DNA from: Candidatus Magasanikiibacteriota bacterium
Lineage (GTDB): Bacteria; Patescibacteriota; Patescibacteriia; Magasanikbacterales; UBA922
DNA: 62,420 nucleotides
NCBI GenBank assembly: GCA_018652595.1
Contig: JABIBU010000008.1
Coordinates: 1-62,420 of the forward strand
Direction: 5' to 3'
Shown: piece by piece, positions 909 through 39,496 of the stretch
Layout: the number at the start of each line of letters is the position of its first letter
Numbering within the stretch: position 1 is the first letter of the stretch
Made by a program: the position numbers and the translations under genes
The notes under the pieces: generated by a model
Seen by the model: the letters and a program-made list of their open reading frames with translations, nothing else
Database searches by the model: none
What the model was told of the DNA's origin: nothing

Positions 909-2951
909 TTAAACTGTTTCTGGAACTGTTTTTTTCAAATCATCAATTATTTGCTGGCGTCTAGCCAATTCAGCTGCTTTACCAAAGGCAGGCAACCCAA
1001 CTTCAAGATCTCTTTCCATTTCTTCAATCACCTTATTTACCCCAGTTTCAACCTCTTCGGCCTCATCAGCCTTTTTGGAAAAAAAATCTCTTTCATTAAT
1101 CAAAATACCTATCTGATCTGATAATAATCCTGCGTTTCTATCAGACCTATCTCCAAGCGTAGACAAAGAGGATTCAACGCCAGCTAATTTTTCTTTCAAG
1201 CCTGCTAACTCATCTTGTGCAATATCTTTTTCTTTTACTAAACGCTCTCCTTCATCTACAAGCCCTTCTTTCTCTGCTTCTAATTCTTGAACTCTTAGAG
1301 CGGCTCCCTCTATATTTTTTTTTCGTTCCGCTTGTAAGACAGCAATCATAGCCTCCATTTTTTCTGGTGTATCCAATTTAATAACCCCATCTTTACCCGT
1401 AGCATTATCTACTATGTCTTGTTTTGTCAATTCTCTACCCTTTATATGCTCTTCAAGCCTTTTTTTCCACTTACCCAGTTCTTTTATATCTGCATCTTTT
1501 AGATCACCACCCCTATTGGTTCTATTCTCTTCATATTTTTTAAATAAAACAGGAGTCCCGTCTTTACGTGGATCAGTTACTCCTTTGTTTCCTAATAAGA
1601 GTTCGGGACGATCAATTTGTTCCCAGATTGCTCCGACTTGGGTTGCTAATACAGATAATTCAGGATCATCATTAGGATCAAATTTTATGTCACCATTATT
1701 TTTTACTACAAAATCTTGTTGCCCCCAACCACGGACCCTATTTGTTTCAAAGTCATCTGGACTTTCATTTGCTTGTCTAAAAAATGACATTGCGTTATAT
1801 GCTTCTTTTACTGAGTCAGATACTTCATAGTCAGAGTTTACTTGATGGGTAATTGATCTTATGGCTAATATTAGTTTTGCTTCAACATGAGCAGCATCTA
1901 CTACCCAACTTGGTGCAGTTTTTTCACCTTCAAGTTCTTTCTCATTACTACCGGAGTTCAAGGCAATTACGTTACTGGATGTACCAGAAGTGGTTTCAGC
2001 AAAATGATTCTGGTGGTAAGTCCCAATTGAATTAAAAGAGTTTTCTAGACGGACAATTACCGCTTTTTTTGCTTGATCATCAGGTTGGCTAGATTCTGCC
2101 CTATCAACTAATGCGGATATTTCTTCTCTGGCCATAAAAGATAAACCCTTGGCTACTTTTTCTTGTTCTTTTGCTATGACCTCTTGTAGTTCTGTTTCTA
2201 GACCTTGACAAAATTTAATATCATCTGAGCCCCACATAGGACTTTTTCTATCATTAAACTTTTTACCATTGCTTATTAATACATTGTCTAATGCAGCATT
2301 TACCCTGTCCATCATCCTGTTTGCCAAGGTATCAATAATTCTATTTTTATAATCTTCATAACTTTCTTTTGCATACTCCACTTTACCAGGACTCATCCGA
2401 TCAGCCTCATCACGCAACCTAGCAATTTCTTCATCTTTGGTTACCAGCGAAGCTGTCTCGCCTTTAGCAATTTCTTCATAATTTACTCCCAACTCACTTG
2501 CCAATTCTCTAGCCTGCGCGACCATATCTGATTCTAATCGAGCTAACTGATCTAACACTTTTGTATTACTCTGGAGCTCCTCTGCCGATTTTCCTCTCTG
2601 GTCTACAAATGCAATAAAATCTTCTTTTGCTTGACTATAATTATCCAACTTGGCTTGTACAGCCTCTGGTATATCTTTATCGCCAAACTGACTAAATATT
2701 AAAAGATTAAAATGCGTACCTATCAGTTCTTTTTCGCTTTGCTCATCCTCTCCTTTAGCCAAATCTTGCAAATCTTTACCTATTTTATCACCTGCATCTG
2801 CAATCCAAACTTTTGACTTTTTATCAGTTTCGGCCTTAGTGACCTTTTCATTTGCCTTGTCTGATTCCTCTTTAGCGACTTCAGCCCAAAAAGCACCGGC
2901 ATCAAACCCTCCTCCTTTTGGTTCATCGCCCCCTGTTTCTCTTTTTTTCAT
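909..2951 (-). CDS. Hypothetical 680-aa acidic protein with C-terminal coiled coil
   Basis: Long ORF with its own sigma70 promoter (TTGACA 3035-3030, 17 bp, TGn-TATAAT 3012-3007); no family motif recognised. Confidence 0.75.
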   Translation of the reverse strand: MKKRETGGDEPKGGGFDAGAFWAEVAKEESDKANEKVTKAETDKKSKVWIADAGDKIGKDLQDLAKGEDEQSEKELIGTHFNLLIFSQFGDKDIPEAVQAKLDNYSQAKEDFIAFVDQRGKSAEELQSNTKVLDQLARLESDMVAQARELASELGVNYEEIAKGETASLVTKDEEIARLRDEADRMSPGKVEYAKESYEDYKNRIIDTLANRMMDRVNAALDNVLISNGKKFNDRKSPMWGSDDIKFCQGLETELQEVIAKEQEKVAKGLSFMAREEISALVDRAESSQPDDQAKKAVIVRLENSFNSIGTYHQNHFAETTSGTSSNVIALNSGSNEKELEGEKTAPSWVVDAAHVEAKLILAIRSITHQVNSDYEVSDSVKEAYNAMSFFRQANESPDDFETNRVRGWGQQDFVVKNNGDIKFDPNDDPELSVLATQVGAIWEQIDRPELLLGNKGVTDPRKDGTPVLFKKYEENRTNRGGDLKDADIKELGKWKKRLEEHIKGRELTKQDIVDNATGKDGVIKLDTPEKMEAMIAVLQAERKKNIEGAALRVQELEAEKEGLVDEGERLVKEKDIAQDELAGLKEKLAGVESSLSTLGDRSDRNAGLLSDQIGILINERDFFSKKADEAEEVETGVNKVIEEMERDLEVGLPAFGKAAELARRQQIIDDLKKTVPETV

Positions 2952-15354: not shown

Positions 15355-15603
15355 ATGTTTTACATATATATACTAAGATTATCTAACGAAGATTTATATA
15401 TAGGCCGAACAGATGACCTAAAGAGGAGGTATAGCGAACACCAACAAGGAAAAGTGAAATCAACCAAAAATTATAGACCTTTAAAATTGATCCATTACGA
15501 AGCTTTCTCAAACAAAAAAGATACCACAAGAAGAGAAGGCTATTTAAAAACTAGCACAGGAAAAAGGATGTTAAAATTAATGATAAAAGAATCATTAAAA
15601 TAA
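15355..15603 (+). CDS. Small GIY-YIG nuclease (UPF0213-like); probable start at ATG 15355
   Basis: YIYIL....LYIG.TDDL.RR..EH..G....TK..RP..L..YE.F......RE..LK motif; promoter TTGACA-17-TATAAT at 15277-15305. Confidence 0.88.
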   Translation: MFYIYILRLSNEDLYIGRTDDLKRRYSEHQQGKVKSTKNYRPLKLIHYEAFSNKKDTTRREGYLKTSTGKRMLKLMIKESLK

Positions 15604-15685
15604 GCCGCTGTGGTGAAATTGGTAGACACGCACGACTCAAAATCGTGTGAGGCAACTCATGTCGGTTCGATTCCGACCAGCGGCA
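15604..15685 (+). tRNA. tRNA-Leu(CAA)
   Basis: GCCGCTG/CAGCGGC acceptor, CACGA-CT-CAA-AA-TCGTG anticodon arm, long variable arm, GTTCGATTC; CCA not encoded. Confidence 0.95.
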
Positions 15686-15688
15686 CAA

Positions 15689-15816
15689 GTATACACGACT
15701 CACCCACGAAGTAGAGCAGAGCTCACTTCGGGGTGTCCAGCAGTGAGCCCTGCTCTACTGCAGGACAAAATCGTGTTCCTTCGGGAGTGAGAGTTCGATT
15801 CTCTCCTCGGGCACCA
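15689..15816 (+). pseudogene. 5'-truncated second tRNA-Leu(CAA) with a 65-nt hairpin insertion in the anticodon loop
   Basis: GTATA-CACGA-CT-[15701-15765]-CAA-AA-TCGTG, UUCG variable arm, GAGAG-TTCGATT-CTCTC, CTCGGGC-A-CCA; no matching 5' acceptor strand. Confidence 0.8.
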
Positions 15817-32098: not shown

Positions 32099-32185
32099 AG
32101 TAATAATTAATTACCTACTTATTTTACTAATTTTGGCTTATTTTAGCAAGTCATAGCATGTTAGGCACGACGAAGTGAATACTAG

Positions 32186-32286
32186 CTCCCAGACCAGGGC
32201 TCGCCATAAAATAGAGCTCCACTTCGACAAACTAAGTGTCCCTCACTTCAAGGCAAAAACCTGGAACCTATGCGTTAACAATCCCG
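32186..32286 (-). pseudogene. tRNA-Asn 3' remnant with a 54-nt insertion in the T-loop
   Basis: TT-GTT-AA..TAGGTT-CCAGG-TT-[32257-32204]-CGAGC-CCTGG-TCTGGGA-G. Confidence 0.7.
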
Positions 32287-32293
32287 ACAAAAG

Positions 32294-32365
32294 CTCCTTG
32301 GGCAGGATTCGAACCTGCAACATCGGCATTAACAGTGCCGCGTTCTACCATTGAACTACCAAGGA
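32294..32365 (-). tRNA. tRNA-Asn(GTT)
   Basis: TCCTTGG/CCAAGGA acceptor, CGGCA-CT-GTT-AA-TGCCG, GCAGG-TTCGAAT-CCTGC; CCA not encoded. Confidence 0.96.
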
Positions 32366-32371
32366 ACACTT

Positions 32372-32432
32372 GTCGTGATTCTACCAATTGCCACCCTACG
32401 GGTGGTCAGCCTTGGGCTGAAACTACCTCGGA
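32372..32432 (-). pseudogene. tRNA-Asn-like 5' remnant with a 30-nt double-hairpin insertion in the D-arm
   Basis: TCCGAGG-TA-GTT-[TCAGCCCAAGGCTGA CCACCCGTAGGGTGG]-CAATTGGTAGAAT-CACGAC. Confidence 0.7.
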
Positions 32433-32436
32433 ATAT

Positions 32437-32590
32437 AAACAAAAACACCCGTTTTAGCGGGTGTAATTAATGTTTTTACTAAGAGAAAAACTACACTCCG
32501 CTTTCGGGTGAATTATTATTACTATTATTATTTTTCACGTGTAATCTTATCATATAATTGTATTATAGCACATTTTAGCCATTTTGTCAA
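32437..32590 (-). promoter_or_regulatory. sigma70 promoter plus ribosome-mediated attenuator upstream of tRNA-Asn
   Basis: TTGACA(32590-32585)-17-TGn-TATAAT(32567-32562); alternative helices 1:2, 2:3, 3:4; terminator ACACCCG-CTAAAA-CGGGTGT plus U-tract. Confidence 0.7.
32491..32553 (-). CDS. Putative Asn-rich leader peptide MIRLHVKNNNSNNNSPESGV
   Basis: 20 codons with six AAT; ATG about 2 nt from the predicted TSS; stop codon overlaps attenuator segment 2. Confidence 0.65.
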   Translation of the reverse strand: MIRLHVKNNNSNNNSPESGV

Positions 32591-38224: not shown

Positions 38225-39496
38225 CTACATTCGATCATACTCATGCACCTCTATCTGAGCGTCAATCTGCTTGGCGGTCTCAATAGCCACTGATACCACG
38301 ATCAAAAGTGAGGTACCACCAATTACCAATGATTGAGTACCTGTGACAGCTCTCAAAAGTAAAGGTAACACAGCAATAAGAGCCAAAAATGAAGCACCAA
38401 TAAAGATTATTCTACTCATAGTGTGACCAAGATATTCTTCGGTCTGCTTTCCTGGACGAATACCAGGAATAAAACCACCTTGTCTCTGCAAATTCTCGGC
38501 AATCTTTTGGGGATGAAAAATAACAGCAGTATAAAAATATGTAAAACCAAATACTAATATAAAATATACTGCTCCGTAAAATATCTGATTATTAAACAAG
38601 CTTACAACGCCCTGAGATAGGGTGGCAAACCAACCAGTTCCAGCTACAAAAAATTGAGCAATCATTGGCGGAAATAAAATTACTGAAATTGCGAAGATAA
38701 TTGGGATAACACCAGCCATATTCACACGCAAAGGCAAGTGGGTATTACTACCACCATACGTCTTATTACCACGAATCTGCTTAGCATAGCTAACTGGAAT
38801 ATTTCTCTGTCCTTCGCTGATAACAACCACACCTACGACAGTAGCGATGGCAATAGCGATAAACAATCCGTAAGTATATAAGTCTGATGAAGTATAGTTC
38901 AAAACAGCTCTTTGGACTACACCTGGCAATGCAGATACGATACCAGCAAAAATCAAAAGTGAAATTCCGTTTCCGATATTTTTTTCAGTAATAAGCTCAC
39001 CAATCCACATTAGAAATACTGTACCAGCTGTAATTGTCAGCATGATTGTAATAAGTTTATATGTATTTAGATCTGGAATAATTTGATTTTGTGATTGAGT
39101 AAGAAGTTGGATCATGGCAAAGGCCTGCAAAAAAGCCAAAGGCACAGTAGACAATCTTGTATACATATTTATTTTTTGCTGACCTGCTTCACCTTCTTTT
39201 GATAATTCTTCTAGACGAGGAACTACCATTGTAAGAAGCTGGAAAATAATAGAAGCTGTAATATATGGAGCAATACCAAGCATGACTATAGAAAAGTTTT
39301 CCATAGTACCGCCAGAAAACACATTCAACAGTCCCAAGATCTGATTACCTGCCAAAAATTGACCCAAAGCCTCTGTATCTACACCAGGAATCGGAATATG
39401 AGCAGCCAATCTAAAAATAACAAGCATCCCCAAAACGAAGAGGACACTTTTTCTTAAACTTTTTATTTTCCAAATTTTTCTAATTTTTTCCCACAT
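38225..39496 (-). CDS. secY: Preprotein translocase SecY
   Basis: FRLAAHIPIPG, LGIAPYITASII, GIGNGISLLIFAGI, GFIPGIRPG, GGTSLLIVV. Confidence 0.98.
   Translation of the reverse strand: MWEKIRKIWKIKSLRKSVLFVLGMLVIFRLAAHIPIPGVDTEALGQFLAGNQILGLLNVFSGGTMENFSIVMLGIAPYITASIIFQLLTMVVPRLEELSKEGEAGQQKINMYTRLSTVPLAFLQAFAMIQLLTQSQNQIIPDLNTYKLITIMLTITAGTVFLMWIGELITEKNIGNGISLLIFAGIVSALPGVVQRAVLNYTSSDLYTYGLFIAIAIATVVGVVVISEGQRNIPVSYAKQIRGNKTYGGSNTHLPLRVNMAGVIPIIFAISVILFPPMIAQFFVAGTGWFATLSQGVVSLFNNQIFYGAVYFILVFGFTYFYTAVIFHPQKIAENLQRQGGFIPGIRPGKQTEEYLGHTMSRIIFIGASFLALIAVLPLLLRAVTGTQSLVIGGTSLLIVVSVAIETAKQIDAQIEVHEYDRM

Follow-up and report, generated by a model that had tools for sequence, protein, structure and literature searches.

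How does a complete tRNA-Asn gene come to lie inside the broken halves of another tRNA-Asn gene? The question is raised by a locus of a Candidatus Magasanikiibacteriota bacterium, on the minus strand at positions 32186-32432 of contig JABIBU010000008.1 (GCA_018652595.1), and "the window" below means this contig at its full length of 62,420 nucleotides (nt). An intact inner gene stands there between the 5′ and 3′ parts of an outer gene, and each outer part is itself split by a hairpin insert; we refer to the whole arrangement as a nest. Our analysis favours, with a probability of roughly 0.6, the reading that the locus is a tRNA-Asn gene rebuilt by a cassette that disrupts the resident gene and replaces it.

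Genomes are labelled with G000 for the window's own genome and with G001 and G002 for sister species of the same genus. The G000 assembly is of metagenome type (0.96 Mb in 27 contigs, 37% G+C, 95% complete) and holds 41 tRNA genes by ARAGORN. Nests were surveyed in 61 relatives first and then in all 107 genomes of the family, with the tRNA-Asn loci read individually.

Architecture of the nested tRNA-Asn genes

A preliminary description of this DNA, made from its letters alone, had laid out the elements of the locus on the minus strand, including a 5′ remnant read as TCCGAGGTAGTT (32432-32421) and CAATTGGTAGAATCACGAC (32390-32372), and all of them were found where it had placed them. The nest consists of the following features:

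32421-32432, minus strand: outer tRNA-Asn nt 1-12, TCCGAGGTAGTT (acceptor 5′ strand TCCGAGG, then TA and GTT), matching the intact gene of G001
32391-32420, minus strand: 30-nt double hairpin, TCAGCCCAAGGCTGA + CCACCCGTAGGGTGG (TCAGCC-CAA-GGCTGA + CCACCC-GTA-GGGTGG), between outer nt 12 and 13 (GTT^C)
32379-32390, minus strand: outer tRNA-Asn nt 13-24, CAATTGGTAGAA, the remaining D arm, matching the G001 gene
32366-32378, minus strand: 5′ arm of the closing stem, TCACGACAAGTGT, forming 13 base pairs (bp) with 32282-32294 and prolonging the inner acceptor stem
32294-32365, minus strand: inner intact tRNA-Asn(GTT), called by ARAGORN and by the Rfam tRNA model (73.6 bits)
32282-32293, minus strand: 3′ arm of the closing stem, CTTTTGTCGGGA, an inverted repeat with the 5′ arm
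32258-32281, minus strand: outer tRNA-Asn nt 32-55, TTGTTAACGCATAGGTTCCAGGTT (anticodon loop TTGTTAA, 3′ strand CGCAT of the anticodon stem, variable loop, T stem CCAGG, then TT), matching the G001 gene
32204-32257, minus strand: self-folding 54-nt insert in the outer T loop, between nt 55 and 56 (GTT^C)
32186-32203, minus strand: outer tRNA-Asn nt 56-73, CGAGCCCTGGTCTGGGAG (CGAGC, T stem CCTGG, acceptor 3′ strand TCTGGGA, discriminator G), matching the G001 gene

The inner gene, the sole tRNA-Asn that ARAGORN finds in the G000 assembly, is the copy that does the work; ARAGORN and Rfam call it alone and none of the outer pieces. It belongs to a module of about 98 nt, in which a complete and divergent tRNA-Asn is enclosed by the 13-bp closing stem (TCACGAC.../...GTCGGGA). 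This module has replaced nt 25-31 of the outer gene, and since the segment lost is the 5′ strand of the anticodon stem, the outer tRNA-Asn can be taken as dead. The outer acceptor strands TCCGAGG and TCTGGGA form six of their seven pairs, one of them G-U, just as had been described, and leave a single G.G opposition. The predicted minimum-energy fold of the nest is a cloverleaf within a cloverleaf. It bears as well on an earlier proposal that the CGAAGTG of the 54-nt insert would pair with a CACTTCG just downstream: both motifs are present, but in this fold the insert pairs with itself and not with the downstream sequence.

An old resident and its replacement

Which of the two genes was there before the other is indicated by comparison with the sister species G001, where the uninterrupted form of the allele, which the preliminary description had proposed to look for, does exist. 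The outer pieces are identical to the intact G001 gene at 62/67 positions and the inner gene at 56/72, which argues that the outer gene was resident first and was replaced by the inner one, and bears out the earlier view that a resident tRNA-Asn was disrupted and now holds a different, functional allele inside it. The inner gene of G000 departs from both the outer gene and the sister-species gene in three stems. At the orthologous site the tRNA-Asn of G001 is uninterrupted, preceded by the same Asn-codon leader and terminator and followed by the same hairpin; with the upstream leader and downstream terminator common to all three genomes, the loci of G000, G001 and G002 can be regarded as orthologous. 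One genus thus offers, at one locus, three natural states (the old allele unbroken, a nest, and a nest bearing extra hairpins) that make the order of events testable.

When the outer pieces were joined in silico, with the hairpins and the inner gene deleted, ARAGORN called no tRNA, in G000 and in the more distant nest of G014 alike. Adding 6 nt of the G001 anticodon stem to the joined pieces led ARAGORN to call a tRNA-Asn, which happened with none of 500 shuffles (0/500). The outer remnants are thus more than a chance resemblance to tRNA, and the preliminary expectation that remnants freed of their inserts would outdo shuffled sequence holds once those 6 nt are restored. What found no support is the idea that small hairpin insertions inactivated the resident gene: it is the module that removes nt 25-31, deletion of the hairpins restores no tRNA, and the nests of G014, G025 and G074 are free of hairpins.

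At the G001 locus (L020 ~1400-1490, minus strand) the intact allele of the outer type is followed by the 3′ remnant of another tRNA-Asn allele, ACAGGTTC, a double hairpin and GAGTCCTACCTCCGGAG. This remnant of a further allele would mean that the locus has been rebuilt more than once.

Nests in related genomes

Full tRNA-Asn nests were found in 11 genomes from several genera (G000, G002, G014, G115, G025, G074, G086, G093, G032, G129 and, in decayed form, G013). The hairpin-free nests of G014, G025 and G074 have continuous outer D and T arms, and all seven outer acceptor pairs (7/7) form in G014, G074, G093 and G115. The junctions of G074 differ from those of the window, its outer 5′ part reaching to about nt 29 and its outer 3′ part beginning in the variable loop. 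Hairpins occupy the D and T regions of the nest in G093, as in the window, and G002 has an insert at the same site as the window's 30-nt double hairpin.

Other relatives hold parts of the arrangement. Only the 3′ part is kept in G116 and G130, as remnants starting in the anticodon loop, and only the 5′ part in G028 and G108, where a double hairpin occupies the same GTT^C site. G112 carries the inner allele of its congener G014 (71/72 positions) and has no remnants at all. Gene conversion between inner and outer 3′ parts is seen in G115 and G116, and the outer halves are decayed or missing beside an intact inner gene in G002, G086, G129, G013, G116 and G112.

A scan for the 3′-junction pattern in one genome per species, covering 185,579 species, gave genuine matches only in records labelled Candidatus Magasanikbacteria or Patescibacteria; its other matches are due to chance, as are four hits on viral contigs. 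A metagenome scan for the inner allele returned a single contig, Ga0265594_1001999, with a nest of the G002 type. The G002 contig CAYXGV010000023.1 is titled 'uncultured Gammaproteobacteria bacterium' despite belonging to the Patescibacteria genus of the window, and is probably a mislabelled bin.

The closing stem and related modules at other tRNA genes

The closing stem, which like the small GIY-YIG nuclease genes at other tRNA loci goes beyond the preliminary description, runs for 13 nt on each side, starting from position −1 opposite the discriminator G73, and thereby lengthens the acceptor stem to about 20 bp. When nine nests from as many genomes are aligned, 91.5% of the cells in the 13 pairs are standard and eight pairs have changed on both sides, a level of pairing that was not approached by any of 500 shuffles or by any slid register; judged by this alignment, the stem covaries across the nine genomes. 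Its proximal part is hypervariable, as in TTCTGATATAAGC/GCTTATATCAGAA of G129, and its distal TCCCGA(T)/(A)TCGGGA is widely shared. The mismatches of the Asn nests comprise 12 G.T, read on the tRNA-sense strand, against no A.C, in counts that are not independent of one another, and the Glu nests described below have two A.C. Such a bias suggests that the sense strand may fold, as RNA or as displaced DNA; as proof of a stem at the RNA level it was discarded, given the dependence of the counts and the absence of any such bias in the Glu nests. Among the non-nested tRNA-Asn genes a comparable stem is absent except in G006, and the tRNA-Thr of G010 also has one.

Similar modules occur elsewhere. 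A BLAST search of the 41 tRNAs of G000 against its genome revealed more than 15 tRNA remnants, and the tRNA-Glu(CTC) of this genome is enclosed by TCCCGAGACTTCT/CGAGTGTCGGGA behind a 5′ remnant. Complete Glu nests are present in G084 and G086, with stems of the form TCCCGAT.../...ATCGGGA. A copy of tRNA-Ile(TAT) and a copy of tRNA-Lys(CTT) contain 'empty' hairpins (TCCCGATACATCGGGA and TCCGTTAGCCAACGGA, respectively) that displace the same segment in both, which begins with the 3′ strand of the D stem and extends to nt 31-33. When the genome was searched for TCCCGA...TCGGGA pairs spaced by 70-110 nt, the Glu nest was the sole match. A transposon with fixed terminal inverted repeats was rejected as an identity for these modules, whose flanks diverge widely from genome to genome yet stay complementary and share only the distal TCCCGA/TCGGGA. 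At C18:17330-17380 of G000, a TCCCGAT...ATCGGGA stem has as its loop a single unit of the double-hairpin family, which suggests that the two module types, closing stem and double hairpin, combine.

The small hairpin inserts

The preliminary description had also raised the prospect of finding the two inserts at other tRNAs. For the 30-nt insert this proved right: it is a member of a family of double-hairpin repeats, and its first hairpin recurs at least nine times in G000. A strict scan of the genome yielded ten double hairpins, half of which (5/10) lie in tRNA remnants, namely those of Asn, Met, Arg-CCT, Gln and Leu-GAG, and less perfect ones occur in remnants of Arg-TCT, Val-GAC and a second Leu-GAG. 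The site is nearly always directly after the GTT or GTTC of a T loop or D stem, and the stems covary around CAA/TTG loops. With dispersed copies and a conserved hairpin structure, the 30-nt element has the marks of a small palindromic repeat (REP/MITE-like). The 54-nt insert is single in the genome by blastn-short and thus lacks the dispersed copies of such repeats. With the G001 gene as reference, the two inserts in the window prove to have entered cleanly behind a GTT, one in the D stem and the other in the T loop, and no target sequence was duplicated. The hairpins would accordingly be accessory or later modules, because nests without them exist in three relatives and their removal restores no tRNA. 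Two double hairpins of G000 (C25:19422-19451 and C3:97161-97190) lie in frame within apparent coding sequence, where 30 nt amount to ten residues.

GIY-YIG nuclease genes beside tRNA genes

At tRNA loci other than Asn, the small open reading frames (ORFs) between intact and broken tRNA copies encode single-domain GIY-YIG proteins; four of them, of 79-88 residues, match PF01541 over their whole length with E values of 1e-15 to 1e-18, and the nearest solved structures to the G000 proteins are those of UPF0213 proteins. G000 has eight GIY-YIG genes, of which 6/8 lie within 107 nt of a tRNA (chance P ~1e-10); the tRNAs concerned are Leu-CAA (in the window), Thr-TGT, Arg-TCG, Lys-CTT, Leu-GAG and Gln-CTG. 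Relatives follow the same pattern, with GIY-YIG genes in 83/107 genomes and 27/32 of the copies examined within 150 nt of a tRNA. Hairpins of several sequence families flank the nuclease at the Thr, Arg-TCG, Leu-GAG and Gln loci, where an enclosing inverted repeat was not found. The locus in the window spans 15355-15816 and is arranged as follows:

15355-15603, plus strand: GIY-YIG gene, ending exactly at the tRNA that follows
15604-15686, plus strand: tRNA-Leu(CAA)
after this tRNA, plus strand: headless second tRNA-Leu, its anticodon interrupted by a 65-nt self-complementary insert

The tRNA-Leu(GAG) locus of G000 opens with an outer 5′ part (GCGCGAG...) whose D arm contains a double hairpin. 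Next come the GIY-YIG gene and then the intact tRNA, and the locus closes with an outer 3′ part, which has a double hairpin in its T loop and ends in CTCGCGC; the outer acceptor strands are complementary at 7/7 positions. This locus has the architecture of the Asn locus with a nuclease added, and is its closest parallel. Within C27:38490-39476 it lies immediately upstream of the RNase P RNA gene (39070-39476). ARAGORN called no tRNA-Cys in G000, and in the relative G009 a GIY-YIG gene adjoins tRNA-Cys; the tRNA-Cys gene of G000 may hide in a disrupted locus or at a contig break.

A proposed disrupt-and-replace cassette and its alternatives

On the reading that we favour, the Asn module would belong to a family of cassettes, bounded by hairpins, that enter tRNA genes and carry a spare copy along, and would be a member without a nuclease. 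Small single-domain GIY-YIG nucleases (YhbQ/UPF0213-like, possibly Ssn-like) would move these cassettes, acting at the Asn locus in trans, on single-stranded DNA in hairpin or cloverleaf form. Later recombination between the homologous halves, or deletion, would erase the dead pieces, a course that may be seen in the series from G014 through G116 to G112, and the end product would be a new tRNA-Asn allele. Turnover of this kind would account for the unusually diverse tRNA-Asn alleles of the family.

Several observations weigh against this account. Neither in G000 nor at about 50 related loci did a GIY-YIG ORF turn up within 1.5 kb of tRNA-Asn, so the link of the Asn locus to these nucleases is one of analogy with other loci, and no inverted-repeat stems enclosing the nuclease ORFs of G000 were found. 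The cutting activity, target and mobility of the GIY-YIG proteins are putative. The sequence of the closing stem varies between genomes, and its whole length cannot be a fixed terminal repeat bound by a protein. Inner and outer copies are nearly identical in the tRNA-Glu of G084 and the tRNA-Lys-CTT of G000, which fits local duplication equally well, and in the lineage of the window the hairpins may have been inserted before or after the nest.

A bolder version, which we offer tentatively and consider doubtful, takes the closing-stem module, the 'empty' hairpins and the double hairpins as non-autonomous parts of a new class of structure-guided mobile elements. The GIY-YIG nucleases would here recognise hairpin or cloverleaf DNA extruded at transcribed tRNA genes. 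They would either excise the 5′ strand of the anticodon stem or, in the D stem and T loop, cut behind GTT. Hairpin-bounded modules bearing a spare tRNA, a nuclease gene or nothing would then be pasted in, and repeated rounds would lead to rapid replacement of tRNA alleles in these reduced genomes, with the dead halves serving as homology arms or as silent donors for gene conversion.

The main rival reading, which we judge unlikely, is a selected RNA architecture in which the outer shell and long stem form a precursor scaffold that folds, protects or processes the inner tRNA, for example by offering RNase III a 20-bp helix to cleave before RNase P acts. The covariation of the closing stem and its 12 G.T against no A.C mismatches speak for such a role, as do the predicted cloverleaf inside a cloverleaf, the intact outer acceptor pairing of G014, G074, G093 and G115, the presence of RNase III and RNase P RNA genes in G000, and the fact that the outer gene passes as tRNA-shaped with ARAGORN once the stem takes the part of the anticodon arm; moreover, the stem persists without outer remnants in G006 and around the tRNA-Thr of G010. 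A scaffold under selection is nevertheless difficult to reconcile with outer halves that are decayed or missing in six genomes whose inner gene is intact, with the D-stem and T-loop hairpins that break the outer fold in the window, or with the majority of tRNA-Asn genes in the family, which have neither shell nor stem, and the mismatch counts, besides not being independent, are accompanied by the two A.C of the Glu nests. Quite unlikely, too, is a purely local rearrangement that involves no mobile element and consists of tandem or nested tRNA-Asn duplication, template switching at the palindromic acceptor stem, gene conversion and decay. Template switching at quasi-palindromes is an established mutational process, G115 and G116 give evidence of gene conversion between the 3′ parts of the inner and outer genes, and the near-identical copies in the Glu and Lys-CTT loci are what local duplication would leave; against this stand the inner gene of G000, which differs from the outer and sister-species genes in three stems, the recurrence of the distal TCCCGA/TCGGGA motif and of the same replaced segment at Asn, Glu, Ile and Lys, and the tight association of the remnants with repeat hairpins and GIY-YIG genes.

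Leftovers of an integrase, that is, partial duplications of the attL/attR type that remained after an island had integrated into tRNA-Asn and was lost, carry little probability. tRNA genes are classic integration sites at which partial copies are left behind (PMC9897764), and the 3′-only remnants of G116 and G130, which start in the anticodon loop, resemble such copies. However, the eight neighbouring ORFs scanned with Pfam include no integrase or mobile-element gene, and the fragments lie 6-12 nt from the intact gene. The preliminary description had already distinguished the locus from the simple 3′-end duplication of integrases, and rightly so, given that a stretch of 250 nt takes in both a 5′ and a 3′ fragment with no element in between. 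No direct repeat is common to the junctions GGTAGAA|TCACGAC and GTCGGGA|TTGTTAA, 7 nt of the target are lost, and the junction positions vary between genomes; with no integrase gene nearby and no shared repeat at the junctions, a site-specific integrase was rejected. An assembly artefact, in the form of a chimera of two tRNA-Asn alleles from co-assembled strains, could be suspected in a metagenome-type assembly of 27 contigs, but it is very unlikely because the same nest is found in independent assemblies (G002 and Ga0265594_1001999) and in other genera; G002, Ga0265594_1001999, G014, G115, G116 and G025 each have it with sequence differences of their own, and in the window the locus sits in the middle of a 62-kb contig. 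Two further candidates were dismissed. Removal of all three inserts restores no tRNA by ARAGORN, contrary to an intron-bearing, split or permuted tRNA of the bulge-helix-bulge kind, and as to a group I intron, Rfam reports tRNA alone in 32100-32520, even at E values up to 10.

Comparison with known systems

The cassette reading has its nearest relatives among systems in which small nucleases and repeats occur together. The Ssn family consists of single-domain GIY-YIG site-specific nucleases for single-stranded DNA, whose own genes are flanked by NTS/SRM hairpin repeats, and the NTS repeats modulate transformation (Nat Commun 2025, PMC11893778). In common with that system, the proteins considered here are small and have a single GIY-YIG domain, and hairpin repeats of 20-50 nt, scattered throughout the genome, may likewise flank their genes; the style of the core motif is also alike (ATTCCC..GGGAAT in Ssn, TCCCGA..TCGGGA here). 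In contrast, tRNA goes unmentioned in PMC11893778, where neither the nesting of genes nor the carriage of a spare gene is described. The Ssn subfamily is cd10448, of which the G000 nucleases are candidate members; their nearest solved structures are UPF0213 proteins.

SegB of phage T4 is a free-standing GIY-YIG homing endonuclease in a tRNA gene cluster (PMC2988022; PMC13096335). It too is encoded among tRNA genes, and by cutting the tRNA region of rivals it drives the preferential inheritance, and even the amplification, of tRNA genes. Unlike the proteins of G000, SegB is larger, has a DNA-binding part and is phage-borne; it leaves no nested or hairpin-split tRNA copies, and the Asn locus for its part has no nuclease gene. 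Integrases of phages and genomic islands also leave partial tRNA genes (PMC9897764; Williams 2002 cited there), with an intact gene beside a partial copy of that tRNA, frequently broken in the anticodon or T loop. The Asn locus departs from these in having two-sided fragments, deleted target bases and hairpin modules at the breaks, and no integrase, island or att repeat.

Mobile endonuclease ORFs of fungal mitochondria, by the work of Paquin et al. in 2000 (cited in PMC3787672), reportedly bring a replacement gene end with them, and the mitochondrial DNA of Allomyces contains double-hairpin elements. The likeness is that a selfish insertion disrupts a gene and supplies a substitute part, that the displaced original becomes a pseudogene, and that short mobile elements of two hairpins occur in the same genomes. 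The fungal genes, however, are organellar and protein-coding and have their C-terminal end replaced, whereas here a whole tRNA gene is enclosed in a stem. In-frame insertion into genes is known from small palindromic repeats such as the Rickettsia palindromic elements and REP/REPIN. Likewise palindromic and also found in frame in coding sequence, the 30-nt double hairpin is much shorter than these and is strongly concentrated in the loops of dead tRNA copies. Archaea and red algae have disrupted tRNA genes, with multiple introns, split or permuted (PMC4390854, PMC3978253), and the intervening sequences of these lie in the D arm, anticodon region and T loop, as do the present inserts. Their removal by bulge-helix-bulge splicing restores the tRNA, whereas here 7 nt are missing and the host is a bacterium, with a 16S rRNA of bacterial type.

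As far as these analogies reach, the locus may act like a homing-type element that breaks a gene and brings a spare, a mechanism that we put forward as a proposal. No publication that we found describes the nesting of one tRNA gene in another by way of hairpin modules, and a selfish cassette that swaps tRNA genes is apparently undescribed. Were the proposal true, essential single-copy tRNA genes of very small genomes would be overwritten repeatedly by a selfish cassette, which would explain why the acceptor, anticodon and T stems of tRNA-Asn diverge among close relatives. The large family of tiny GIY-YIG (UPF0213/YhbQ-like) proteins would gain a biological role, and the pairing of hairpin repeats with GIY-YIG nucleases for single-stranded DNA would extend to gene-nesting mobile DNA. 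On this reading, annotators of candidate-phyla bacteria should not take the tRNA-like fragments and hairpins that surround tRNA genes for att sites or introns.

Transcription, processing and neighbouring genes

Directly ahead of the nest lies one further feature:

32441-32590, minus strand: perfect TTGACA-17-TATAAT promoter, 20-codon leader ORF, alternative hairpins and terminator

The leader ORF, MIRLHVKNNNSNNNSPESGV (32553-32491, minus strand), has six Asn codons in a run of seven, and the terminator hairpin occupies 32464-32441 (minus strand). Leaders rich in AAT/AAC likewise precede the tRNA-Asn in most relatives, and the region looks like leader-peptide attenuation of a tRNA gene; promoter, leader and attenuator are predicted to feed transcription into the nest. 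Since RNase P RNA and RNase III are both encoded in G000, the inner tRNA can be released from such a transcript. RNase P is expected to work more slowly on a stem in which position −1 is paired with 73 (PMC9433436), so that the closing stem may have a role in processing.

The eight neighbouring ORFs scanned with Pfam encode RecO, RuvX, an M24 peptidase, a CARDB protein and unknown proteins. Downstream of the nest, the window has a gene for a 461-residue protein with no Pfam match, and the gene downstream of the G002 nest (L156 440-620, L002) starts like an Asn/Asp-tRNA synthetase, with an OB-fold N-terminus.

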